Positions 5,031-61,491 are shown, numbered from the stretch's first letter. The stretch is 64,000 nucleotides of DNA from an uncultured Candidatus Saccharibacteria bacterium (GCA_964349135.1 CAYGFK010000002.1:7535-71534), one strand, 5' to 3'. Translations and numbers: made by a program. Notes: a model not told the origin generated them from the sequence alone.

Positions 5031-6026
5031 TTAGGGTTCCACTCGAACCCTCACAAAGAGCGGATTTTGGTCCGGCAGAGGAGTACTTACTGTCCCGTCA
5101 GAGCCGATGGTAAGCATCGGTCCGTAGTCAATCCAGCGGTGAAGCAAGGATGGTGACGTTTCAGGTACAACTCGGGTGCCTGGAAATCCGTGAATGATGG
5201 CGTAGGCCGTCGGAAGGGAGGCGTTTTCGCTCTCGATTTGAGGAAGGGGCGATTTCTCGCCCGGAAGGGTCTGCATTTCGACAGAGACAATCGATGAGCC
5301 GGATAGTTGTCCGGTCAGGACGTCATACTCGTCGTAGAGCGTTTTTGTCTCGTCGTAGTAGAGACGCATAAATCCCGTCTGTCCATAAAAACGCATTCGG
5401 TCGGCGTCGATTTGGTACACCCTCACCACAAGTGCATAAGGCTCGTCTTGCCAGAGCGAGTCTGAACCATTCGTGGTCCAGATGTCGTCTGCAAGATTGC
5501 CATTCGCGTCCCAACGAAGGTGACGGATATACTTGACGCCTTGTGGCATCGGAGCAATGAGGAAGTTGTTATACTGCCAAGAGATTACCGAATCGGTTGG
5601 AGGAATCGGCACTCCGTTTTCGTCGAGTTCGACGGTGAAGGACGGTTTTCCGCACTCAATCCCAAGTCTGCGCGTACCTACAGGCAGAGGAACTTCCCAT
5701 CGGAAGCCGATAGTCGCATAGAATTCTTTCCCTGCGTCGGCGCTTGTCACGACTTCCGTGAAGAGCTCAGTGAAGAGCGATTTCAGGGTAGTAACAAGTG
5801 TGCCCGACCCACGTTCATGTGGAGCCGATTTGGTGAATTCTACGTCGGGAACGTCTTTCCGTTTGAGGATGACGGTAACGCGGTAGACATTTTCGTCCCA
5901 GCTACGTTCGATGTTCTCGCGAGACCCTAAGAAGGGTAGCGAGGTAGGTCGTTCTTGCGGGACGGCACTAGAGGCCACCGCAAGAGAGAGGAGAATTGTG
6001 CAAAGGCACAAGACTTCTGTTTTCAT
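5031..6026 (-). CDS. Secreted hypothetical protein (331 aa) with signal peptide
   Basis: N-terminal MKTEVLCLCTILLSLAVASSAVPQ signal peptide; no catalytic motif recognised. Confidence 0.6.
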   Translation of the reverse strand: MKTEVLCLCTILLSLAVASSAVPQERPTSLPFLGSRENIERSWDENVYRVTVILKRKDVPDVEFTKSAPHERGSGTLVTTLKSLFTELFTEVVTSADAGKEFYATIGFRWEVPLPVGTRRLGIECGKPSFTVELDENGVPIPPTDSVISWQYNNFLIAPMPQGVKYIRHLRWDANGNLADDIWTTNGSDSLWQDEPYALVVRVYQIDADRMRFYGQTGFMRLYYDETKTLYDEYDVLTGQLSGSSIVSVEMQTLPGEKSPLPQIESENASLPTAYAIIHGFPGTRVVPETSPSLLHRWIDYGPMLTIGSDGTVSTPLPDQNPLFVRVRVEP

Positions 6027-9820: not shown

Positions 9821-10305
9821 ATCGTAAACACATCCGACAGCGTGGTGTTAGTCTTGCTGAAGTCGTTGTTGCGGCAGCTATTGTCGCTATAGTGTCGCTC
9901 AGTCTCATTTCGGCATTTATTTTGCACTTGCGCGCCGGGCTCGCTGTCCCTGAACGAATACAGTCTACTCTGCTTGTAGAGGAAGGCATTGAAGCTCTCA
10001 AGTTTCTGCGTGATGGAAGTTGGGATACGAATATTGCGCCACTTGCACTTGATACGACGTACTACTTTTATGCGACGAGTACGACTTATGAGGCTACGAC
10101 AACCGAACAAGTTTCGCTCAATAAGTTTTACCGGACATTTGTACTGTCGGCCGTTCTACGGAATTCTGACGGTATCATTGTTGATACGGGAGGTACGGTC
10201 GATGACGGAAGCAGGCGTATTGATGTGAGCGTGTCATGGCTTACTCAGAATGGGACGACCACAAAAACATTTACGACCTATCTCACTAACCTATTCTTGA
10301 ACTGA
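9817..10305 (+). CDS. Prepilin-type pseudopilin (162 aa)
   Basis: N-terminus …RQRG^VSLAEVVVAAAIVAIVSL is a prepilin peptidase-type motif with Glu at +5; 4-nt overlap with the upstream pilin gene. Confidence 0.65.
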   Translation: MNRKHIRQRGVSLAEVVVAAAIVAIVSLSLISAFILHLRAGLAVPERIQSTLLVEEGIEALKFLRDGSWDTNIAPLALDTTYYFYATSTTYEATTTEQVSLNKFYRTFVLSAVLRNSDGIIVDTGGTVDDGSRRIDVSVSWLTQNGTTTKTFTTYLTNLFLN

Positions 10306-10817
10306 TGAAGTACTCTCGAGAAAAAGGATTTTCCGTCGTCGAGTCCATCATTTATCTCGCTTTAACAGCGCTTTTTATGGTGCTTATCATTGACACGCTC
10401 GTCTCTATTTCCGGTTCTTATCGGAAACTGACGCTCGCGCGTGTCCTCTCACATTCAGCAAGTGTTTCTATGGAGCGTATGACACGCGAACTTCGTACAG
10501 CAAGCGATATTGACCCGGTTGGCAGTGTGTTCGATTCTGATTTCGGGCGCGTCGTACTACATACGACCGATGCAAATGGCGTGGTTGGGACGGTTTTGTT
10601 TGCGCTTGAGGATGGAGCCGTCGTACTTTACGAGAACGGCGTATTGACCGGTCGGCTTACTACTCTGAGTGCGAGTACGACCTCTCTCTTTCTCCATTTC
10701 TATGACAACGGAACGTCCGAAGCACTCTCAATCGACATGACTCTTGAGGCTACACGTGGCGATGAAACGCGAGTCGAATCGTTCCGGACCATGGTAACAC
10801 TCAGGAATTCTCCATAA
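10305..10817 (+). CDS. Prepilin-type pseudopilin (170 aa)
   Basis: N-terminus MKYSREKG^FSVVESIIYLALTALFMVLII is the canonical G-F-S-x-x-E prepilin signature. Confidence 0.7.
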   Translation: MKYSREKGFSVVESIIYLALTALFMVLIIDTLVSISGSYRKLTLARVLSHSASVSMERMTRELRTASDIDPVGSVFDSDFGRVVLHTTDANGVVGTVLFALEDGAVVLYENGVLTGRLTTLSASTTSLFLHFYDNGTSEALSIDMTLEATRGDETRVESFRTMVTLRNSP

Positions 10818-10821
10818 CCAC

Positions 10822-12135
10822 ATGACATTGATGACCCACAGAAACTATGCAAATCGTGAGCGGGGACAAGTGCTGTTCGGGACCGTATTACTTTTTCTGT
10901 TTATCTCCTCAATTATTGTTTTTGGTATTAGCCGCTCAGTTTTTCACCAGCTTAAGACGGCGATTGATTTTAGCGACTCACGCGAGGGCTATTTTCTTTC
11001 AGAGGCGTTAGCGGAAGACACGGTATATCGCATTATGCATGCGTACCCTGTTGGGTTCAGTGCAACGCTCAGTCTCAACGGACAGACGGCTTCCGCGCTG
11101 ATAATTGACGGTCCGGGTACAAAAGAAATTATCTCGACGGCCGATTGGGATGATTTGGTACGCAAAACAAGAATGCGTATGACGTTTGGGAGCGGTGGCT
11201 CGTTCTTCTACGGCGTGCAGGTCGGACAGGGGGGTCTTGATATGTACAACACATCGGAGGTTATTGGGAATATTCACTCAAGCGGACCGGTAACCGGTAA
11301 TAACTCCACGCAAAGTAATTACAATTATATTCGAGGTGATGTACTTTCATCAGGCACCGGTGGCATTATTTCAAAGATTCACGCTACAAGTTCTGCGTAT
11401 GCGCATACCATACAAAATTCCGTTATCGATAAAGATGCTTATTTCCAAGTACTAACCGGTACGACGGTTGGGGGGAATCAGTATCCAGGGAGTCCCGACC
11501 AGGCGACAACGTCACTTCCGCTTGATGAAAGTCTTATTGATGATTGGGAGGCAGATGCAGTAGCCGGCGGTAGCGTTACCTGTACAAATGGTGAGTATTT
11601 AATTGATGCCGATACAACTTTCGGACCTAAGAAGGTTCCGTGCGACCTTCGAATCGAGAGTAATCCAACAATCACCATCAACGGAGCAATTTGGGTGACG
11701 GGTAATATACATGTTGTAAACCAGCCGGTTGTTCGAGTGAGTCCGGCCTATACTGACGTCACCATCCCCATTATTGCGGACAACCCGTCTAATCGCCTTA
11801 CCTCAAGCAGTATTCTTCTTGACAACAATACGTTTTTCCAGGGAAGCGGAAATAATTCTTACCTCTTGCTCGTTTCCCGCAATGAAAGTGCTTCGCAGGG
11901 AGGTGCGGTGGACGCAATTACGCTTGCTAATAGCGTGAGCGGGGAACTGCTGTTATATGCCCCTCAAGGTAATGTAACTATGAACAACTCTGTGGATTTG
12001 CGCGAGGTAACCGCATACAAGCTTACACTCAGAAATAGCGCCAAAGTTATCTATAAAAGTGGGCTTGCTGATGTTCATTTCACCTCGGGTCCAAGCGGTG
12101 GATATGAAATTCTCGACTGGCGAGAGATAGAATAG
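10822..12135 (+). CDS. Pilus-associated large minor-pilin-like protein (437 aa, N-terminal TM anchor)
   Basis: N-terminal hydrophobic helix (VLFGTVLLFLFISSIIVFGI) then a large Thr/Ser/Gly/Asn-rich domain. Positioned as the last gene of the pilin operon, as for PilX/PilY-like tip proteins. Confidence 0.4.
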   Translation: MTLMTHRNYANRERGQVLFGTVLLFLFISSIIVFGISRSVFHQLKTAIDFSDSREGYFLSEALAEDTVYRIMHAYPVGFSATLSLNGQTASALIIDGPGTKEIISTADWDDLVRKTRMRMTFGSGGSFFYGVQVGQGGLDMYNTSEVIGNIHSSGPVTGNNSTQSNYNYIRGDVLSSGTGGIISKIHATSSAYAHTIQNSVIDKDAYFQVLTGTTVGGNQYPGSPDQATTSLPLDESLIDDWEADAVAGGSVTCTNGEYLIDADTTFGPKKVPCDLRIESNPTITINGAIWVTGNIHVVNQPVVRVSPAYTDVTIPIIADNPSNRLTSSSILLDNNTFFQGSGNNSYLLLVSRNESASQGGAVDAITLANSVSGELLLYAPQGNVTMNNSVDLREVTAYKLTLRNSAKVIYKSGLADVHFTSGPSGGYEILDWREIE

Positions 12136-50678: not shown

Positions 50679-50939
50679 ATGGAGACGATGGGTATGTGAA
50701 AAAATAAAAACATGCTGGTACGGCATGTGTCGCGAACCGGACACTCTTGTTTATACGCCCGCTTCTACAAGACCGCAAGTCTTCTCACGCACTATCACGT
50801 CGAACTATATCGGATTGTTAGAATCTAATAGCGTGCTCAAAATTGTTGGAGTTACCGATACGATTCAACGTGGTGGAGACCGAAGAATGAAATCAGAGAA
50901 CGACTTAACGGTTTAGTTCGACAAGCTATAAATAAAACC

Positions 50940-51146
50940 ATGGCAATCATAATCAATATCGACGTAATGCTGGCCAAAAGAAAGATGAGTGTCACCGAAC
51001 TTGCAGAGAAAGTCGGTATCACCATGGCAAATATTTCCGTGTTGAAGAACGGCAAGGCAAAATCGGTTCGGTTCTCGACGCTAGAGGCAATTTGTAAAGC
51101 GCTCGAGTGCCAGCCCGGAGATATCTTGGAATTCAAGAAGCCGTAG
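50940..51146 (+). CDS. XRE-family (Cro/C1-type) HTH transcriptional regulator
   Basis: 68 aa, …MSVTELAEKVGITMANISVLKNGK… HTH. Confidence 0.75.
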   Translation: MAIIINIDVMLAKRKMSVTELAEKVGITMANISVLKNGKAKSVRFSTLEAICKALECQPGDILEFKKP

Positions 51147-51155
51147 TATGGAATC

Positions 51156-51175
51156 TGTGGAGATGGGCGGAATCG
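51156..51175. repeat. Direct repeat of the tmRNA 3' terminal 20 nt (TGTGGAGATGGGCGGAATCG): distal att-site copy
   Basis: Identical 20-mer to + strand 57570-57589 (ssrA 3' end). Confidence 0.7.
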
Positions 51176-51237
51176 GTCGGGGGATAATTTATCCACACAC
51201 GCGATTTATGGAGGAGAAACGGTGCTAACATAAATAC

Positions 51238-53010
51238 ATGTCTATGTACAAATACGTTATTATATCAGCGCTTATCATTTTAAGTTCCGTTATAAGCGCT
51301 GATTTTACTTATGCCCAGAATGTTGGTCCCGACCAGCAGGCATTTTTCGACGTTCCAAAAATCACTAATAATCTTTCATTGGGAAGCGAAAACCATGACG
51401 TTTCAATTTTACAGAACTTTCTTAAAAGGATCGGAGGTATTTACCCGGAAGGACTTATTACGGGCTATTTTGGGAGTCTGACACAGAACGCGGTCAAAAG
51501 ATTCCAACAATTAGTGGGGATAGAAACTGCGGGCACTGTTGGTCCAATTACGCGGTTGGCAATTAATACGTGGATGTTGGCTGCGGCGTCAGAGTCGGGC
51601 AATGCCCACCGATCTGACAACGCGTCGCCGGCCACCCCTGCAACTCCCGCAACGCCCGCGACACCATCTCCTGGTGGAGGACCTGCAACTCCCGCAACGC
51701 CCGCGACACCAGCCGTTCCAGACCATGTATTAGTTTCACCTCCTCCTCCACCGACGCCGCCAATTATTCCCCCGCCAGCAACGACGACGCCGCCAATTTC
51801 AACGACGACACCTCCAGCGATACAGCCTCCTTCGACCACTACACCGCCGACAGCTACTTCTACAAAATTTATAGTGGGAGATAGGGTATACGCAACTATC
51901 AATCTAAATGTTCGCGACACGCCTTCATTGTCCGGCACCCTTCTCGGTGTTCAGGCATCAAGTTCTTTGGGGCTGATTACCGGTGGTTCGCTAAGTGCTG
52001 ACAATTATTATTGGTGGAATGTTGATTTTGATTCCGGAACTGATGGATGGAGTGTAGAGAATTATCTTGAGAAAGTAGTGGTGTCGCCACCGCCACCACC
52101 CGAAGGTGAACAGCGTATTACGTCAAATACAGCAAATCAGAATTATCCTTCAGTTTACGGCGAAAATATAGTTTGGGAAGACAGAAGGAACGGAAACATA
52201 GACATCTACGGTTACAATTTGACTACAGGGATTGAGAGTCGCATAACTTCAAGCATTGGTGACGAAATACGCCCGTCAATTTTCGGAAATCAATTAGTTT
52301 ATATAGATAGACAGCCAGACCTTTCAAATCCTGGGCATGACACAATTCAGATATATCTTTCTGATTTACAGAACAGCGTCACTAGTCCTCTGATTGGCGA
52401 TTCAAAATTCCAATCTGCGCCCACGATATGGGGGAGCAAAGTCTCTTATTTGGACCATAGTTTAAGTGGAGATAGGGTTTTGTTCGTCTATGATATGTTG
52501 ACTCATTCAAAGGAGCTTGTTGCGAATGGACCAAGTATTACACAACCACATATGGCTGGTGATTTCGTGGTCTGGGCAAATGGTCAAGGCGGGATTTACA
52601 AAACATACACGTATAATTTGCAGACCAAGGTCACGCGTTTGATCACCAACCACTCAGGTGATCAGTTTGCCCCCAAAGTCTCTCGTGAAGGTAAGATTGT
52701 TTTCGCAGACCGAAGGAGTGGGGCAGGCGCAGGTGATTGGAACGTATATATGTTTGATTTGGTTACCAATGAAGAGACGAGAATCACTCCAGAAAATGGT
52801 AGTCAACCTATAGATCTATCGATTTCTGACAAGTGGATTTCATGGTCGCGCGATAGAGATGTCTTTGTGTACAATCTAGCCTCCGGAGTAATAAACAGAT
52901 TGACCTCTCTCCCGACAGAAGAAAAGCAGACGAACCTTTATGGAGATTTGTTGGTTTGGGCAGACGGCAGGGACAGTCAGGATGATATTTATTCGATTTT
53001 CTTGCGTTAG
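51238..53010 (+). CDS. Secreted protein: PG-binding domain + Pro/Thr/Ala linker + SH3b-like domain + β-propeller (PD40/TolB-like) repeats
   Basis: Signal peptide. PG_binding_1-like motif. (ATP)n repeats. 'VGDRVYATINLNVRDTPSLSG…' is SH3b-like. Repeated '…WxDxRxGNxDIY…' blades. Confidence 0.65.
   Translation: MSMYKYVIISALIILSSVISADFTYAQNVGPDQQAFFDVPKITNNLSLGSENHDVSILQNFLKRIGGIYPEGLITGYFGSLTQNAVKRFQQLVGIETAGTVGPITRLAINTWMLAAASESGNAHRSDNASPATPATPATPATPSPGGGPATPATPATPAVPDHVLVSPPPPPTPPIIPPPATTTPPISTTTPPAIQPPSTTTPPTATSTKFIVGDRVYATINLNVRDTPSLSGTLLGVQASSSLGLITGGSLSADNYYWWNVDFDSGTDGWSVENYLEKVVVSPPPPPEGEQRITSNTANQNYPSVYGENIVWEDRRNGNIDIYGYNLTTGIESRITSSIGDEIRPSIFGNQLVYIDRQPDLSNPGHDTIQIYLSDLQNSVTSPLIGDSKFQSAPTIWGSKVSYLDHSLSGDRVLFVYDMLTHSKELVANGPSITQPHMAGDFVVWANGQGGIYKTYTYNLQTKVTRLITNHSGDQFAPKVSREGKIVFADRRSGAGAGDWNVYMFDLVTNEETRITPENGSQPIDLSISDKWISWSRDRDVFVYNLASGVINRLTSLPTEEKQTNLYGDLLVWADGRDSQDDIYSIFLR
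51638..51717 (+). repeat. Tandem in-frame repeat (GCAACTCCCGCAACGCCCGCGACACCA ×2, with shorter ACC-CCT-GCA units) encoding the (ATP)n linker
   Basis: A 27-nt unit duplicated 53 nt apart inside the CDS. Confidence 0.6.
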
Positions 53011-53020
53011 TTTTAAATTT

Positions 53021-53034
53021 TGGAGATGGGCGGA
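53021..53034. repeat. Partial direct repeat of the tmRNA 3' end (TGGAGATGGGCGGA): middle att-site copy
   Basis: 14-nt identity with 57572-57585. Confidence 0.55.
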
Positions 53035-53463
53035 CGCTTCGCTATCGAACTCGTCTCTCGTAAACTCAGGACTCTTTGAGAACACTACAAGAGTACTTCA
53101 TTTTTCTAAAACGGAAGACCGTTAAGAAAAATTAGTCGCTCCTCCGTTCTCAACACCTCGCCTTCGGCGGGTCGCTCTCCGCCACGGGAGAACTCCCGTT
53201 CTCCCGACCCCTCTCTCGGTTCGATTCCGCACGCACGTGAAGCAGTTCACGTGCTCCACTCCATTCAAAAAACAAAAGCGCCCGAAGGCGCTAATGTTTT
53301 TACGAATGGAAGTGGCTGGTAATACATCGAACTCCTTAAAAACCTACCTCACAAAATTTTGGGCGTATTACCAAGGGAGTCAAAACCTTCAGAAATTGCT
53401 TGCTACGGCTTAGCTAAACGCAAAGAGGTTATACAGGAGTAGGGTATAGAGTATAATCAGTCC

Positions 53464-53736
53464 ATGACGAAAGAGGAAATTCAATTTTTCTTTTTTATTC
53501 TACTTCCCATGATTGCCGTTGGAGTTAGTTCCATATACTTGGGAATTAAGATAATACTCGATAAAAAGACACGAGCTTGGTGGGCAAAATGGTGGTGGGG
53601 ATTCTTAAACAACCAAAAGCGTGCAGAAAAACAGGTCGTATTCTTCGACGCACCAATAGTAATTGGAGCAGGGATGATGATTCTTTGGACTGTCCTTTCA
53701 ATCGTGCTTGCCCAATTCAATATCTTTATCTTCTAG
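53464..53736 (+). CDS. Small 2-TM membrane protein (90 aa)
   Basis: Hydrophobic helices; island cargo. Confidence 0.35.
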   Translation: MTKEEIQFFFFILLPMIAVGVSSIYLGIKIILDKKTRAWWAKWWWGFLNNQKRAEKQVVFFDAPIVIGAGMMILWTVLSIVLAQFNIFIF

Positions 53737-53768
53737 GGTAAACGGACACTGCTATAAAAATAATCTCT

Positions 53769-54017
53769 ATGAACCGTCCATCGAATAAACCTTTATTAGT
53801 GACCTGCGTCGTATTTGGAGTAGTCGTAATCTGGTTTGCTGGCGTGATAATCCACCTCGAAAGATACCGTTATGCCAACCAGTCGCATCTCTGCTATAAA
53901 CCCGAGAAAAATTATGTCGTAGATGCTGATGCCTATTTTGAGCGAGAGAATTGCCTAGAAACAGCAGTCCCACGAACGTCAGGTCTCTGGGATTTGTATT
54001 ATGCATTAACCGACTAA
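53769..54017 (+). CDS. Small 1-TM membrane protein (82 aa)
   Basis: Hydrophobic helix; island cargo. Confidence 0.35.
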   Translation: MNRPSNKPLLVTCVVFGVVVIWFAGVIIHLERYRYANQSHLCYKPEKNYVVDADAYFERENCLETAVPRTSGLWDLYYALTD

Positions 54018-54021
54018 AAAA

Positions 54022-54294
54022 ATGCTAGAAATTTTTGAATGGATTGTTTGGGGAATTGCAATATTTATAGCTTTGAGTCTCACTTACGGTGCTGTAAGAC
54101 GATTGATGGCAAAACAGCCAGTAATGAAGGCAACTTTGTATCAGGGGATATTCATCGGGGTGGCGTCGTTATTCCTTTTATTCTCTCCGTCGGTCAGCAA
54201 GCTCCATTTAATTTGGATTGTGCCCGTCTGCTTCCCATTAATTGGATATCTCACTTTCCGCTCAGCTACGAAAGAGGTTGAGGAGGTAAAGTAA
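54022..54294 (+). CDS. Small 3-TM membrane protein (90 aa)
   Basis: Hydrophobic helices; island cargo. Confidence 0.35.
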   Translation: MLEIFEWIVWGIAIFIALSLTYGAVRRLMAKQPVMKATLYQGIFIGVASLFLLFSPSVSKLHLIWIVPVCFPLIGYLTFRSATKEVEEVK

Positions 54295-55024
54295 TAGCCT
54301 TTTTATTTGTCGTACCAAAGTGAATTTCATTACCCTCGATGAGTCGGGATTCTTGTCCTTTCTCGTATCTTTCTTTGAAGTCAGTGAGGTGGGGTCGTGA
54401 GTCGACTGTTCCATGCTCAAAAATTGGGAGTAGTTGAACCAGCGTGTAAGAGGTCTGCACTTCTTCTCTAGTAGGAATTTTTCCTGTCAGGAAGATGCCA
54501 GTAAATACCACGAAGACATGCTTGATGGTCGATTTAATATCGGCTAGTTTTGTGGCAAGTGTACGGAAATCATATAAGGATGGCGTTAAGACTAGGCAAA
54601 CCAAAATAGTGTTTGGTTCGTATGTATTTTCAATCATTTTGTCTCGAATTGTCTCAAAAAGTTTATTGGGCTCTTCCCGATGTTCTACAACCTCAACCTC
54701 ACGTAAGTAGCCCCTATGTGCACCAGGCTTATCTTCTTTAAAAGTTATAACGAGCCCGTCTGGTGGGTCTGGATTTGGCATATTCATCCACCAGTCAACG
54801 TGAGAATCGTCTTTCAATGCCATGGCAACCATAGAAACGCAATAACGTTCCCTGTCCTTTTTGGGCAGCTTAAGAATATCTTTGCCATTGTTAACCATAG
54901 ATTCGGCATATTTAAGCAATCCCTTTACAGGATGATCCCATTGCTTAGCACGAGAATTAATGTCTCGCAGGTTTATCTTCGTCATTAGTGAATCACCTTC
55001 TTTTTCTCCGAAATAAAATGCCAT
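54266..55024 (-). CDS. Hypothetical cytoplasmic protein (252 aa), possible PD-(D/E)xK-like nuclease
   Basis: 'PDGLVITFKEDK' gives a D-x7-E-x-K spacing. Convergent with and overlapping the third small TM gene. No firm family assignment. Confidence 0.4.
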   Translation of the reverse strand: MAFYFGEKEGDSLMTKINLRDINSRAKQWDHPVKGLLKYAESMVNNGKDILKLPKKDRERYCVSMVAMALKDDSHVDWWMNMPNPDPPDGLVITFKEDKPGAHRGYLREVEVVEHREEPNKLFETIRDKMIENTYEPNTILVCLVLTPSLYDFRTLATKLADIKSTIKHVFVVFTGIFLTGKIPTREEVQTSYTLVQLLPIFEHGTVDSRPHLTDFKERYEKGQESRLIEGNEIHFGTTNKKAITLPPQPLS

Positions 55025-55372
55025 AGAGATATCTTATTACCAATTTCCGAATTAATACAAGAATTCCGGCCACATTCACTGGTTTACGTCTGTAGATAGA
55101 CGTTAGCTAATTGACCTACAGTGCCATAGTACATTGCATTACCCCTACCTAGACTGAGATACAAGTAAAACCACTCTCGCCCCATGCAAGTAGCCTACCC
55201 ACCATCTACCATTGCAAACTTGAAGGTAAACAAACCACCCCGGATACGACTTGAAAAGTGATATCCACAGCTCGTTACCCCTTGCCAGGTATCGGTGGCA
55301 CTTAGATATCGTTGAGTCATGGTACATGGTAGCGTTATCGGCATTATAAGTAATACAGCCCGAAGAGGGGCA

Positions 55373-55435
55373 GCGAAGCTTCCGTGTACCAACATGAGGC
55401 CGATCGCTATCCCTCTTCGGGTTTTATTGTTACCC
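55373..55435 (+). terminator. Long-range hairpin (CCCGAAGAGGG…CCCTCTTCGGG) + T-rich tail
   Basis: 11-bp perfect stem enclosing about 45 nt, followed by TTTTATTG; at the end of a 360-nt ORF-free stretch within the island. Confidence 0.4.
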
Positions 55436-55437
55436 AT

Positions 55438-55722
55438 ATGAAAAGCATAGAAAGAAGGTTTGCCAAGCTTCAGGAGTCACGACCTGGCTTGAGCGGTTAT
55501 ATGAATTTCGCTGGTGCAGTGAAGGATGGTCACTTTACCCCTAAGACCATTCATCGTTGGTTCAATCTTTTGGTCGATAAAGATGATTATTCTCGATCAG
55601 ATAAAAGAGCTCTATTCGCACACCTCGACTCGATTTCAAACCCTCCGAGGACGACAGGAATTGAGGGTAATTTTGTCCTTACGGCATCACCAATTAGTAA
55701 TCACGTAGTCCAGAGAGTATGA
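55438..55722 (+). CDS. Hypothetical small protein (94 aa) upstream of the recombinase
   Basis: Start trimmed to MKSIERRF, downstream of the hairpin. Confidence 0.35.
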   Translation: MKSIERRFAKLQESRPGLSGYMNFAGAVKDGHFTPKTIHRWFNLLVDKDDYSRSDKRALFAHLDSISNPPRTTGIEGNFVLTASPISNHVVQRV

Positions 55723-56024
55723 ACATAAAAATAACCCAAATAGAGCCACTTTCAATCGTGGTACATGAATCCATTTCGGTATCGGATGCAATCGTGGTCT
55801 TGGAGTTGTTTATCTACCGGATTACGACTTCAAGGGCGAAAGAGAGTAACGGATTAGTCGTATCTGTTGCTGAATATAGGAAGCTTCTTGGTGATTACCA
55901 AAGTACAGACGAACGCATCACAGATCGTCTGAGGTATCTCGAGGCTTTCTGCAGAAATATTATTAAACCTGAAATAAAAACATATGTCGTTACCAAATCA
56001 GGGGCGCATCAGGCGTCCACCTAA
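55719..56024 (+). CDS. Hypothetical small protein (101 aa), candidate DNA-binding protein or recombination directionality factor
   Basis: Immediately upstream of and overlapping the recombinase gene; no family recognised. Confidence 0.35.
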   Translation: MNIKITQIEPLSIVVHESISVSDAIVVLELFIYRITTSRAKESNGLVVSVAEYRKLLGDYQSTDERITDRLRYLEAFCRNIIKPEIKTYVVTKSGAHQAST

Positions 56025-57609
56025 GCGCCAACGTGGTGGAAGGAAAGTTTTAACCGGAGAAGTAGAGCCAGCTAACACAAAAGCGCTTGGCTATTGCAGG
56101 GTATCGTCTTTAACTCAAGCTACGGATGGACATGGTCTAGATAGCCAAGAGCATCGTTGTCGAACATTTGCTGAACAAAAGGGACTAGAGATGGTAAAAG
56201 TCTTTCGTGATTCTCATACTGGCGGAGGCGATTTTTGGCAACGTCCGGCCATGAGAGAACTTTTGGAATACGTTGATGCACATCCGACTGAAAGATTCAC
56301 GGTTATTTTCGACGATCTCAAACGATTTGCGAGGGACATCCAATTTCACTGGAAGCTACGAACGGAGTTTAGTGCTAGAGGTATTACACCAGCATGTCTG
56401 AACTTTAATTTCGAAGATACACCGGAAGGGGGTTTTATAGAAACAGTAATGGCTGCGCAGGGTGAGCTAGAACGAAAACAAAACCGGAGACAGGTGATGC
56501 AAAAACAAAAAGCTCGAATGGAGTTAGGGTATTGGCCATTTGCCGCTAGGAAGGGTTACACATCAGTAAAAGACCCTCTTCATGGAAAGATATGTAAACC
56601 AAACGCAGGAGGGGAAATATTGGCTGAAGCATTAGCTCTGTTTGAGAACAGGACACTCTTGCGTAAGGTTGACGTTGCCCGTTTCTTGGTCGAGAAGGGA
56701 TTCTGGACTGGTCAGAAACCAGAGAGATATATCGATAAGGTATCACACATACTGCAGGATCCTTTTTACTGCGGGGATATGGAGTATCCCGCATGGCAAG
56801 TAAAACGCAGGACAGCAAAACATGTGGGAATTATCACCAAGGATACTTTTGAGCGAATTCAAAAGCTAATAAGGCGAGAAACTACATTGAAGCGTATCCG
56901 TTGGGATATTTCGCCAGAGTTTCGTTTGAGGGGTTTAATTCTTTGTGACCATTGTGGCAATCATCTCACAGCTGCCTGGTCAAAGAAGACATTCCCGTAT
57001 TACATCTGTCATACAAAGGAATGTGAACGCTACGGCAAATCTATTCGCCGGGATGATATTGAAGGCCAGTTTGACATATTACTTCAGCAAAACACTTTGA
57101 AGCCCGAAATTGGTACTGTTGTCGGACTTGTCTTTGAGAGAGTTTGGGCGCAGGAAATTAATACCATGAAAGTAGAGGTCTTGAATCAAGAGGGTGAGAT
57201 TAGAATGCTTCAAGATAAGGTATTACAACTTACCGATGCCGCCTTGAATGCAAAATCTGCACAGGTAAAAGCTGTTTATGAGCAACAAATAGAAACTACT
57301 GCTGATGAGATCAACGAAATCAAGTCCCGATCGCCATTAGTTCCAACAGACCTAGCTATTCCTTATCGAACTGCCCTTGATAAAGCAACCGGATTACTTA
57401 AAAGCCCATATAAGATATGGCAAAACCTCAATGTTGTTGAGCAACACAGTCTTTACTACTTCGTTTTTGAGGAGAAATTACGATATAACCAAGTCTCTGG
57501 TTATCGAACTGAAAAATCCTCAAGTGCCATAAGGCTCTTTGAGGATTTTGTCAGTAAAAACTCCCTAGATGTGGAGATGGGCGGAATCGAACCGCCGTGC
57601 AAAGAGTAG
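55984..57609 (+). CDS. Large serine recombinase (resolvase/invertase catalytic domain + recombinase domain + zinc ribbon)
   Basis: Catalytic 'GYCRVSSLTQ' Ser motif. Central recombinase domain. C-terminal Cys cluster CDHCGNHLTAAW…YYICHTKEC. The 3' end overlaps the tmRNA 3' end. Confidence 0.85.
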   Translation: MSLPNQGRIRRPPKRQRGGRKVLTGEVEPANTKALGYCRVSSLTQATDGHGLDSQEHRCRTFAEQKGLEMVKVFRDSHTGGGDFWQRPAMRELLEYVDAHPTERFTVIFDDLKRFARDIQFHWKLRTEFSARGITPACLNFNFEDTPEGGFIETVMAAQGELERKQNRRQVMQKQKARMELGYWPFAARKGYTSVKDPLHGKICKPNAGGEILAEALALFENRTLLRKVDVARFLVEKGFWTGQKPERYIDKVSHILQDPFYCGDMEYPAWQVKRRTAKHVGIITKDTFERIQKLIRRETTLKRIRWDISPEFRLRGLILCDHCGNHLTAAWSKKTFPYYICHTKECERYGKSIRRDDIEGQFDILLQQNTLKPEIGTVVGLVFERVWAQEINTMKVEVLNQEGEIRMLQDKVLQLTDAALNAKSAQVKAVYEQQIETTADEINEIKSRSPLVPTDLAIPYRTALDKATGLLKSPYKIWQNLNVVEQHSLYYFVFEEKLRYNQVSGYRTEKSSSAIRLFEDFVSKNSLDVEMGGIEPPCKE

Positions 57610-57965
57610 GAAACCAAGCGTCTACGTAATCTAGGGTATCTTTTGTTTTTCGACGAAAGCGCTAGAAGATACACAAAACACGTTCCCGTCTAGTTTCTAA
57701 GGTTCGCGTGTGCGCCGAAACGAGCGCCTACGCTATCCTGAAAATATCATGCCCGCGTCCCGCCTTCAGGAGAGGTGAGGGCGAACACGTCTACGTATTA
57801 TGCGTGGACGAAAGCAAGGTCGTTAACACCAAAATATGGTGAGAGTACGGCCTGTGCCTTTGCAACTGCTGATTTGGCAGTTATAGGTTCCAACCGTTTA
57901 AGGAGTTATTGGAGCTCCATTACGCAACTTAGCGACCGTGCCCTTTGTCTAGGCCGATCATCCCC
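57572..57965 (-). ncRNA. ssrA: tmRNA (ssrA)
   Basis: Minus-strand 5' GGGGAUGAUCGGCC… and 3' …GGCGG-UUCGAUU-CCGCC-CAUCUCC-A. The acceptor stem pairs with a G3·U70 wobble, the AlaRS identity hallmark. Putative tag ORF ends …NDLAFVHA-UAA. smpB is adjacent. Confidence 0.8.
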
Positions 57966-57977
57966 GTATGAAAATTG

Positions 57978-58424
57978 TCAACGACCTTTCAGTTCTCGAC
58001 GCATCTCCCGTTCGTCATCACGCTTCTTGATGGTCTCCCGTTTATCAAATTGTTTCTTTCCGCGGGCGATTGCAAGGGCGACCTTGATGCGACGTTTAGA
58101 ACTATACACTGAAATTGGTACTACTGTCAACCCTTTCGTACGTTCGGCTTTTGTGAGTTTCTCGATTTCGTCCTTTGTTAAGAGCAAGCGTCGGTTTCGG
58201 GTCTGATTGTAGCTTTCAGGCGTGTTGCCCGGTTGGTAGGGTGCGATGGTCATGCCGAGAATATACGCTTCTCCGCCACGCATGGTGACGTGCGCCCCTT
58301 CAAGAGACGCTTTGCCGGTGCGCACGGCGCGCACTTCAAAACCGAGCAGTTCTATCCCTGCCTCGAATTGCTCCATGAACTCATAGTTGAAGCGCGCTTT
58401 TCGGTTTTCGGCGAAATTCGACAT
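57978..58424 (-). CDS. smpB: SsrA-binding protein SmpB
   Basis: …ARFNYEF…GIELLGFEV…GEAYILGMTIAPY…RRLLLTKDEI…KGLTVVP… SmpB family; trimmed to the conserved N-terminus. Confidence 0.85.
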   Translation of the reverse strand: MSNFAENRKARFNYEFMEQFEAGIELLGFEVRAVRTGKASLEGAHVTMRGGEAYILGMTIAPYQPGNTPESYNQTRNRRLLLTKDEIEKLTKAERTKGLTVVPISVYSSKRRIKVALAIARGKKQFDKRETIKKRDDEREMRRELKGR

Positions 58425-58702
58425 CACAAACAGTCTAGCAGAATCGGTATTACTTGACGATTTCAGGACACGGAGTACTCTTTTACGTGAAAGGACCTCA
58501 CCATGAATGCACTCAAGTTGATTGGAAAGGGGGTTGCCTTCGTTCTGGCGGTATTTATTGCAATGTTCCTCTACGTCGTCTTTTGGGGGCTTCAGCGACA
58601 AATGCAAAGAGACGACCACTCTATTAGCCCGGTCCGCGCTAGCGGACCGGGCCTTCTCTTTCCGTTCCATTTCTTCGCTCGTTGTGTATAATAGTTTTCA
58701 CT

Positions 58703-60610
<1,908 letters not shown>

Positions 60611-61108: not shown

Positions 61109-61182
61109 CCGCCCTTAGCTCAGTTGGTTAGAGCACGGAGCTTATACCTCCGGGGTCCTTGGTTCGAATCCAAGAGGGCGGA
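61109..61182 (+). tRNA. tRNA-Ile (anticodon UAU)
   Basis: Hand-folded cloverleaf: acceptor CCGCCCT/AGGGCGG, D-arm GCTC-AGTTGGTTA-GAGC, anticodon arm CGGAG-CTTATAC-CTCCG, T-arm CTTGG-TTCGAAT-CCAAG, discriminator A. Needs a tRNAscan-SE check. Confidence 0.65.
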
Positions 61183-61332
61183 CATATATTTGCAGTTGAA
61201 TCGAGTGAACCTTCTATATCATAGATATACCTTGGGGGTGAGAAGCGAACACTTGGAGCTTCGCAAGGTCGGAGTTCGCGAAGGCGAACGAGACGGGGTC
61301 GCGGGATTCGCCAGCGGGCGAATACCCGTGAC

Positions 61333-61361
61333 CTTGGTTCGAGTCCAAGCAGGCGGAACGA
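61333..61361 (+). other. tRNA 3'-half-like element (T-arm CTTGG-TTCGAGT-CCAAG + acceptor CAGGCGG-A)
   Basis: Perfect T-arm plus an acceptor 3' strand complementary to the 5' fragment at 61043. Its last 16 nt recur at 61476-61491. Confidence 0.4.
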
Positions 61362-61475
61362 AGTGACGACTGAAGCGAGCAAACTGCTTTGCTCGCGTTT
61401 GGATGAGAAGGGTTTTGCGCTGTCTTCTGACCGTAAAACTCCGGCCGATGCCCGATAAGCATCGGGAGTCCAAGC

Positions 61476-61491
61476 AGGCGGAATAAATTCC
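61476..61491 (+). repeat. 16-nt direct repeat (TCCAAGCAGGCGGAAT) of the tRNA-like 3' end
   Basis: Exact duplicate of 61346-61361, 130 nt downstream. Confidence 0.5.

Follow-up and report, generated by a model that had tools for sequence, protein, structure and literature searches.

A large serine recombinase at the 3' end of a Saccharibacteria tmRNA gene, and displaced codons that probably mark the far boundary of its island

In a 64,000-nt stretch of DNA from an uncultured Candidatus Saccharibacteria bacterium (GCA_964349135.1 CAYGFK010000002.1:7535-71534; the whole stretch is called the window below), a gene for a large serine recombinase (LSR) runs into the 3' end of the transfer-messenger RNA (tmRNA) gene, ssrA, and copies of the ssrA end recur further out. 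The question raised by this locus is where the island carrying the recombinase ends, and how its integrase uses the tmRNA gene. An initial annotation had taken repeats of 20 and 14 nt as the limits of two or three tandem islands. The comparisons presented here point to a different boundary: the attachment site attP of the element probably lies inside the LSR gene itself, strand exchange probably takes place within the motif TGGA, and the island would then lie between the last bases of ssrA and the transcription terminator that stood behind it. The features needed for this argument are the following.

57571–57965, minus strand: ssrA, the tmRNA gene (ARAGORN; Rfam RF00023; sequence read directly)
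55984–57609, plus strand: LSR gene in its integrated form, 541 aa (Pfam Resolvase, Recombinase and Zn_ribbon_recom)
57571–57575, plus strand: putative attL core GTGGA, LSR codons V530–E531 (junction table of family loci)
53306–53413, plus strand: putative attR core (A)TGGA and P arm, the displaced 3' end of the LSR gene (hidden Markov model, E = 1.5e-20)
53277–53302, both strands: bidirectional intrinsic terminator (terminator scan of both strands)

The tmRNA gene that had been proposed on the minus strand is called by both ARAGORN and Rfam, the latter with a match to RF00023 at 57569–57965 (94.7 bits against a gathering score of 47), and ARAGORN predicts a tag of 26 residues, AKSAVAKAQAVLSPYFGVNDLAFVHA. 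The acceptor stem described previously (5' GGGGATG paired with CATCTCC, with one G3·U wobble) and the perfectly paired T arm, GGCGG-TTCGATT-CCGCC, are both present in the sequence, while CCA is absent from the encoded 3' end. This acceptor and T arm would serve as the B arm of the attachment site. On the opposite strand, the 541-aa open reading frame (ORF) is a large serine recombinase by its catalytic, Recombinase and zinc-ribbon domains, with Resolvase (PF00239, 2e-22) at residues 34–180, followed by Recombinase (PF07508, 4.5e-8) and a zinc ribbon (PF13408, 8.2e-8), and it matches PHROG 95, 'integrase', at 3e-54. Alignment of 41 homologues showed the catalytic RVSS and DxxR columns to be conserved, R39 and S41 of the RVSS motif to be nearly invariant, and D110, R114, R117 and the zinc-ribbon cysteine columns C321, C324, C342 and C347 to be invariant. 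All of this bears out the earlier description of an LSR with an RVSS motif and a zinc ribbon that overlaps the end of ssrA, the overlap being 39 nt (57571–57609). Codons 1–531 are encoded by the element and the last 10, MGGIEPPCKE, are ssrA antisense. The C-terminal consensus of the aligned homologues, DVEMxGIEPxC, is likewise the antisense translation of a tmRNA acceptor and T arm. Read as its complement, the attL core covers the final bases of the tmRNA acceptor, the discriminator and one base beyond.

A protein search with the LSR returned 1,191 significant relatives, the best being 48–74% identical; where a source name is given, which is so for few, the label is nearly always Parcubacteria, Patescibacteria or Minisyncoccia. 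In a one-genome-per-species collection at least 517 relatives were confirmed, and the best 80 loci of these were kept for locus counts. The ORF ends inside a convergent tmRNA or tRNA (t(m)RNA) gene in 52 of the 80, the targets being tmRNA (24 loci), tRNA-Ala (20), tRNA-Tyr (4), tRNA-Leu (3) and tRNA-Arg (1); in about 15 of the remaining loci either a T-arm/acceptor-like sequence missed by ARAGORN lies at the ORF end, or the contig ends there. The same convergent overlap, with tRNA-Tyr, Ala, Leu and Arg genes, is found in members of 39–40% identity (L066, L069–L071, L074, L075, L079–L081), whose hosts include Gammaproteobacteria, a Rhizobiaceae genome and isolates of the Rhodobacteraceae (Palleronia, Rhodovulum, Cribrihabitans, Oceanibium).

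The far side of the island was recognized from a stretch of the window, 53217–53420, that is seemingly non-coding and is conserved in other family islands, 1.8–6.3 kb upstream of their LSR genes. Within it lie 35 codons, MEVAGNTSNSLKTYLTKFWAYYQGSQNLQKLLATA, and a stop; joined after V530–E531, they yield an LSR of 564 aa. About 33 loci gave a match to a profile of this tail segment at E < 1e-3, and in each it lies on the LSR strand and at the far side of the island, about 1.8–11 kb upstream of the LSR. The reading frame is open in 26 of 26 loci and both other frames contain stops in 23 of them, and the entropy by codon position (0.84, 0.78 and 1.24 bits) makes the third position the most variable, a coding signature that ruled out the 53306 stretch as a displaced tmRNA tail or a non-coding attP. 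The segment always starts with (A/G)TGGA, which is to say with the letters and frame of the V-E/D codons that close the element-encoded part of the LSR. Three uninterrupted homologues (P0055, P0113 and P0038) carry the tail peptide fused in frame directly after DV(D/E). One of them, P0113, is encoded on a 105-kb contig (L212; LSR at 10001–11674) with no tRNA or tmRNA gene within 10 kb, and its DNA at the fusion reads GACGAT-GTGGAC-ATAATAAGTAATTTGTCGAAC. With the displaced LSR codons at 53306–53413, the proximal island would extend from 53306 to 57575, or 4.27 kb.

The junction table gives the same layout across the family. At attL, the LSR gene (...GAT) is followed by GTGGAG and t(m)RNA antisense; at attR, a hairpin and T-run are followed by GTGGA and the tail codons. 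Among the 20 loci with both junctions comparable, the leading identity of attL and attR is usually GTGGA (TGGA in the window), with a median of 5 nt and a range of 0–16. In the window, the bidirectional terminator, placed at 53277–53292 by the scan, adjoins attR on the left, its minus strand reading AGCGCCTTCGGGCGCT and then TTTGTTTTTT, and an equivalent hairpin and T-run stand to the left of attR in most family loci; this is the terminator that served ssrA before the island arrived. As an observation in its own right, a possible 11-bp hairpin (AAAATCCTCAA...TTGAGGATTTT) was noticed by eye on the minus strand at 57530–57566, past the ssrA end in the conserved RLFEDF codons of the LSR, and it might act as a substitute for the displaced terminator.

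The 35-codon segment could instead be a small gene of the element in its own right, such as one for a regulator or an excision factor, that became fused to the LSR in a few lineages, in which case the far junction would be elsewhere. In favour of this are an ATG start in the window and in L032, the coding constraint on the segment, and the promoter-like site and other small ORFs that follow it. However, its first codon is mostly GTG, and this lies within the invariant GTGGA that also closes the element-encoded LSR; it comes directly after a terminator and not after a ribosome-binding region; it is found always at the far island edge and always on the LSR strand; and in P0055, P0113 and P0038 the fusion point is exactly DV(D/E). 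An independent gene is considered very improbable.

The displaced codons are most simply accommodated by the following scheme, in which the free element would have an LSR gene of about 564 codons, with attP inside it, about 33 codons before the stop, at D-V-E (GAT GTGGA G). This site would pair with an attB whose right arm is the tmRNA acceptor and T arm read in antisense and whose left arm is the terminator side, and the strands would be exchanged within TGGA, the tmRNA acceptor end and discriminator, with no further mature tmRNA sequence needed from the element. After integration, the LSR ORF would read into ssrA antisense and end after 10 foreign codons, and 33 codons would be left at 53306–53413. 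Excision would rebuild the full-length LSR gene and would probably need a directionality factor, for which the product of a 101-aa gene is a candidate. The predicted sites are ...CCCTAGATGTGGAAGTGGCTGG... for attP (k-mer CCCTAGATGTGGAAGTGGCTGGTAATAC) and ...TTTTTACGAATGGAGATGGGCGG... for attB (k-mer AATGTTTTTACGAATGGAGATGGGCGGAATCG). The split gene, the 5-nt core and the family-wide layout are brought out by sequence comparison, from which the crossover, in serine integrases one with a 2-bp stagger, is placed, putatively, within a shared core of 4–5 nt.

In serine integrases, attP and attB differ in that a distal motif stands 5 nt further out in the P arm than in the otherwise similar B arm. 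The two arms are alike in this family too, and in 11 of 12 pairs that matched well the T-loop-like motif of the P arm is offset by +5 nt, but this count used a tie-break favouring +5 and is an indication, not a controlled statistic. Several further points weigh against the proposed scheme. The attR of the window starts with ATGGA, not GTGGA, and a separate 35-aa peptide could therefore also be made from the segment. No tail segment was detectable within the available flank in the closest relatives (L088, L090 and L091, 60–74% identity). It would be unusual for an LSR to use an attB with a poorly conserved terminator region as its left half. Tail repeats next to attR in several loci, along with the T-loop precedent of Dehalococcoides, leave room for a second site in the T-loop. 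Finally, neither an empty site nor an excised circle was found, the other assemblies being 100% identical fragments of the same strain, and scans for DNA patterns did not find the repeat-based empty site in viral contigs or an ssrA-specific 29-mer in metagenome contigs.

The initial annotation had proposed a search for an empty attB, and none came to light among the look-ups and DNA scans: exact-protein look-ups with the LSR, the XRE regulator, a 590-aa protein and SmpB gave identical fragments of the same strain, or nothing. These results bear on whether the element still moves. It might be a fixed relic with no movement left, its LSR intact by chance or co-opted, and the finding of identical copies of the locus alone, with no circle or empty site, the small amount of cargo and an attR core one base off the family GTGGA would all agree with this. 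Against it, no interruption is present in the LSR ORF, the displaced tail or the partner gene, the catalytic residues of the LSR are conserved, and related islands at the same site carry varied cargo (type I restriction-modification, Dam, Rep), so that a relic is judged unlikely. Any current activity of the element is putative, as are the roles of the C-terminal tail and of the 101-aa protein. Viral contigs contained only 4 distant LSR relatives in 2.9 million, and the neighbouring large genes on L212 had no Pfam or PHROG matches; a viral origin was not borne out by these searches, and the free forms may be phages. L212 may represent a phage or plasmid in its free state, from a Patescibacteria host, with attP inside the integrase gene.

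If the boundary lies at 53306, the repeats of the ssrA tail require another explanation. They occur in a layered region with the following features.

53217–53261, plus strand: the 'block', an inverted (sense) copy of the ssrA tail (repeat search; nhmmer)
53021–53034, plus strand: 14-nt direct copy of the ssrA tail, from the discriminator to the first T-loop base, at the outer edge of a small module
51238–53010, plus strand: gene for a 590-aa secreted PG_binding_1/beta-propeller protein (Pfam; NCBIfam TIGR04275, 2.7e-40)
51156–51175, plus strand: direct copy (20 nt) of the ssrA tail that extends 5 nt into the T-loop, the outermost junction, by the XRE gene
50940–51146, plus strand: XRE/Cro-type helix-turn-helix regulator gene, chromosomal flank (Pfam HTH_26, 2.2e-26)

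Two of the copies reported earlier were recovered by the repeat search and withstood shuffling. The 20-mer TGTGGAGATGGGCGGAATCG is present at 51156–51175 and 57570–57589 (20/20), and its 14-mer TGGAGATGGGCGGA also at 53021–53034, giving three exact copies of the 14-mer, compared with 0.53 expected matches (at most 2 mismatches) per shuffled window, and no shuffle reached 4. Inside ftsH, at 59623, a further match differs from the 14-mer at 2 positions and was taken as chance. The degenerate copy suggested at about 50871–50889 could not be upheld, as it has only TGGAGA in common and was not recovered at up to 2 mismatches.

On the repeats, an arrangement can be built in which the LSR exchanges strands in the T-loop and supplies a replacement tail, the 14-nt and 20-nt repeats are attR, and there are two or three tandem islands. 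The repeats do exist, and their start coincides exactly with the gene end; seven other loci have repeats of 12–20 nt from the gene end, most of them stopping in or at the edge of the T-loop, although in at least two of the seven (L027 and L032) the repeat coincides with the start of the displaced-tail ORF; and the DsiB islands of Dehalococcoides have 20-bp repeats, insertion in the T-loop and tandem arrays. However, 272 nt separate the 14-nt repeat from the displaced LSR codons, which lie further in, and in L051, L058, L073 and L023 the repeat is 140–870 nt outside the tail-bearing attR. A long repeat upstream of the LSR within 10 kb was present in only 8 of 53 loci, a poor fit to a serine integrase. 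The repeat, together with the small module, is also found at a tRNA-Ser gene without an LSR island, and L212, the uninterrupted homologue read at the DNA level, has no tail copy at the junction. Exchange in the T-loop, which predicts junctions of the LSR end with CGCTTCGCTATCG or GTCGGGGGATAAT, is regarded as quite improbable. A 'subfamily B' of LSRs with such a crossover (L058, L057, L073, L051) had been entertained and was dropped, as L058, L073 and L051 have a GTGGA attR with tail codons 140–160 nt inside the repeat. With the boundary at 53306 and only about 5 nt shared by attL and attR, the 20-nt and 14-nt repeats probably do not serve as limits of the LSR island, and they would be marks of older events at ssrA.

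The 14-nt repeat belongs to a small module, 53021–53305, in which the order is tail repeat, spacer, inverted tail copy with a GCAG-loop hairpin, and terminator. The inverted copy reads CGGTTCGATTCCGC ... CTCCACTCCA, broken by the hairpin CACGTGAA-GCAG-TTCACGTG, and an nhmmer search with it gave 9 other places in 8 loci and one weak match in the window. The module order, followed by attR, recurs in L051 (L051:5782-5932), L058 (twice, in tandem; L058:4753-4948 and 5622-5783), L073 (L073:2662-2814, no obvious terminator) and L023, the direct repeat in modules being the last 13–20 nt of the gene, and the inverted copy is found also in L014, L059, L052, L011, L063, L078 and L061. The inverted copy matches the tail of its own locus (TTCAATT loop in L059; tail of tRNA-Ala in L051, L061, L073 and L058), and the hairpin stems vary in sequence yet stay paired, i.e., they covary, around a loop that is usually GCAG. 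A complete module occurs at the LSR-free tRNA-Ser gene (L063:21182-21345) and an inverted copy alone at an LSR-free tRNA-Ile gene (L014, 15360), these being the only 2 of 51 LSR-free tRNA genes with an inverted copy in the retrieved loci; no module is present in the sequence read just after the attP of the unsplit L212. The occurrence at LSR-free genes, and the absence after the L212 attP, indicate that the module is chromosomal and linked to visited sites, and it may be a scar, a landing pad or a small non-autonomous element.

Further out, the sequence to the right of the 51156 repeat, GTCGGGGG..GATAATTT, is similar to that at the L058 and L057 repeats. Between the two tail copies, the gene for the 590-aa protein, which has no exact copy elsewhere in the collection, is probably what is left of the cargo of an older insertion; least certain is the suggestion that the 20-nt repeat forms the outer edge of an older similar unit reduced to this gene. 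An older distal island retaining only this gene had been described, with PG-binding, SH3b and beta-propeller domains, and while the layering, PG_binding_1 and beta-propeller assignments stand, no SH3b domain was detected in the protein. Similarly, the region is layered, with older material distal, but the repeats from which tandem islands had been deduced belong to a separate module that is found also at LSR-free tRNAs. A second gene of the window offers a separate observation. A tRNA-Ile(UAU) gene lies at 61109–61183, and recurs near smpB-ssrA-ftsH in many related Patescibacteria loci; this anticodon is uncommon among bacteria for tRNA-Ile. Downstream of it (61184–61490) are two direct T-arm/acceptor copies, at about 61333–61360 and 61468–61486, and a hairpin, GCGAGCAAA-CTGC-TTTGCTCGC, at about 61375–61397, and the region looks like a degenerate version of the small module.

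The remaining genes of the island and of the ssrA flank are as follows.

55719–56024, plus strand: conserved partner gene, 101 aa (tblastn across family loci)
55384–55722, plus strand: 112-aa ORF upstream of the partner gene (tblastn homologues in L003, L077 and L024)
54266–55024, minus strand: cargo gene; its 252-aa product belongs to a family found across Patescibacteria and probably has a PD-(D/E)xK nuclease fold
53464–54294, plus strand: three small ORFs encoding putative membrane proteins of 90, 82 and 90 aa that contain hydrophobic segments (ORF list)
57978–58670, minus strand: smpB (Pfam SmpB, 1.2e-50)

The partner gene lies directly upstream of the LSR gene and overlaps its start, an arrangement found by tblastn in about 43 family loci. 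Its product has 17 database homologues, with the invariant motif EYR..D..S...I..R...E..CRNIIKPE and a strongly conserved C-terminal half, and gave no match in Pfam, PHROG, PADLOC or NCBIfam; an AlphaFold2 model is helical but weak (predicted local distance difference test score, pLDDT, of 52), too weak for a fold search. From its position and conservation, we infer a candidate directionality or regulatory factor. The 112-aa ORF had no match to a Pfam or PHROG family, and the three hydrophobic ORFs, which follow a promoter-like site at 53430–53457 (promoter scan), had none in Pfam, PHROG, PADLOC or NCBIfam. No island ORF was matched by PADLOC. Among the tested ORFs of at least 60 aa in 50940–57609, Pfam detected no tyrosine integrase domain (Phage_integrase family), and Pfam, PHROG and NCBIfam gave no second serine recombinase, ParB or Mom-like match among the island ORFs. 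Rfam at a permissive threshold had no match in 50700–56000. In the closest relatives, the island cargo is a complete type I restriction-modification system (L090:1-5085), a Dam methylase (L088:5128-5526) and a rolling-circle Rep-like protein (L091:5922-6749), so that different cargo at the same site in related islands implies turnover within the family, with the integration module kept.

As the initial annotation stated, smpB is immediately upstream of ssrA on the same strand, with a gap of 12 nt. The SmpB domain occupies residues 87–228 of the ORF and is preceded by 82 open codons, and the true start may be the ATG at 58424 instead of 58670; the resulting 148-aa version is not on record as a called gene. 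On the XRE side, the gene order is identical in two other assemblies of the same strain.

How this LSR relates to known systems depends on which features are compared. The clade, as defined here, has an LSR ORF that ends in t(m)RNA antisense, displaced tail codons at the far junction, and the 101-aa partner gene upstream; all three are present in the window and co-occur in many of the 80 loci. It is a large and barely described clade, mostly of Patescibacteria, that targets the extreme 3' end of tmRNA and tRNA genes. The literature searches gave no account of it in Patescibacteria, in line with the earlier remark that LSRs at ssrA are little described in such lineages, and a survey of serine-integrase islands placed 14 of 297 at t(m)RNA genes, a use it called unreported (PMC7192596). 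The closest precedent is that of the Dehalococcoides ssrA islands with the DsiB integrase (McMurdie et al. 2011, PMC3146451), whose authors considered that the integrase might be complete only on the circular form. The island in the window works like these, in a different clade: in both, the LSR gene is convergent with ssrA and has its stop codon inside the ssrA 3' end, a 20-nt copy of the ssrA end lies further out, and there are several layers at one ssrA, with some units lacking an integrase. A DsiB-type module found via a primer sequence from that paper (L158) combines a ParB_N gene with genes for a 203-aa Resolvase-only protein and for a 608-aa LSR that reads into a Dehalococcoides-type ssrA end. 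This LSR and that of the window are 23% identical over 433 aligned positions (the N-terminal 380 residues), and the window LSR scores 61 bits against NCBIfam CcrB, where the cut-off is 900. The DsiB module includes genes for the co-transcribed small serine recombinase DsiA, ParB and a Mom-like protein, none of which was matched in the window island, where the partner gene encodes an unrelated protein of 101 aa. The junction in the window is placed, putatively, at a 5-nt core at the gene end, whereas in Dehalococcoides it is in the T-loop, and splitting of the C-terminal codons is demonstrated, from sequence, for the window LSR and not for DsiB. Separately, three metagenome loci with a Dehalococcoides-type ssrA end (L121, L127 and L105) were seen to have two or three copies of TGGTGGAGACGGGGGAGGG per contig, spaced 6–7.5 kb apart in L121 and about 1–1.4 kb in L127 and L105, which fits tandem ssrA islands in environmental Chloroflexi; a serine recombinase read into the TGGTGGAGACGGGGGAGGG repeat in only 1 of 120 such loci.

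The three-domain architecture of the LSR is shared with the integrases of phiC31, Bxb1, A118 and TP901-1, as is the very short identity between attP and attB. Its best solved relative is the TP901-1 integrase (E = 2e-7), with the similarity limited to the catalytic domain. Canonical phage LSRs usually target protein-coding genes or intergenic sites and have attP outside the integrase gene, whereas here it would lie inside the enzyme's own gene. An attP inside its own gene is known for the IntP/IntX integrase of Myxococcus phage Mx8 (tRNA-Asp 3' end) and for SSV1-type Sulfolobus integrases, which are tyrosine recombinases. The likeness is that integration alters or splits the integrase gene and excision restores it, and that Mx8 also uses a tRNA 3' end; literature searches found no serine integrase with attP inside its own gene. 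Classical islands at tmRNA genes use tyrosine integrases (Williams 2003; Islander database, PMC4383910), and the same target gene, displaced 3' fragments and tandem occupancy are seen in the window. The element differs from them in supplying no mature tmRNA sequence beyond the shared core. The initial annotation was right to place an integrated, LSR-bearing element at the ssrA 3' end, but the overlap is not the classic arrangement, in which an integrase stands beside a restored tRNA 3' end.

What is new is a distinct and widespread LSR clade for the extreme 3' ends of tRNA and tmRNA genes, with an integrase gene that would split itself and a conserved small partner gene. Large DNA cargo is inserted mainly with serine integrases, and with hundreds of clade members targeting the nearly universal t(m)RNA 3' ends, attB sites would already be present in many bacteria. 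The way in which such islands are delimited would also be corrected, since a search for long direct repeats of the tRNA end would lead to the wrong boundary. If attP does lie inside the integrase gene and the C-terminus is changed on integration, this would be a new form of control over direction or expression in LSRs. It is possible, and is offered only tentatively, that integration acts as a switch, with a swapped C-terminus, antisense transcription from a highly expressed, terminator-less ssrA and the full 564-aa enzyme made only when the element is excised, and that the small module is a new kind of non-autonomous element or landing pad, confined to the ends of tRNA and tmRNA genes; a switch of this kind, if real, would provide an in-built means of directionality or silencing that has not been described for serine integrases. 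For the Patescibacteria, in which few mobile elements have been characterised, the clade represents a family of such elements that can be mapped, and whose relatives carry restriction-modification, methylase, replication protein and likely nuclease genes as cargo.

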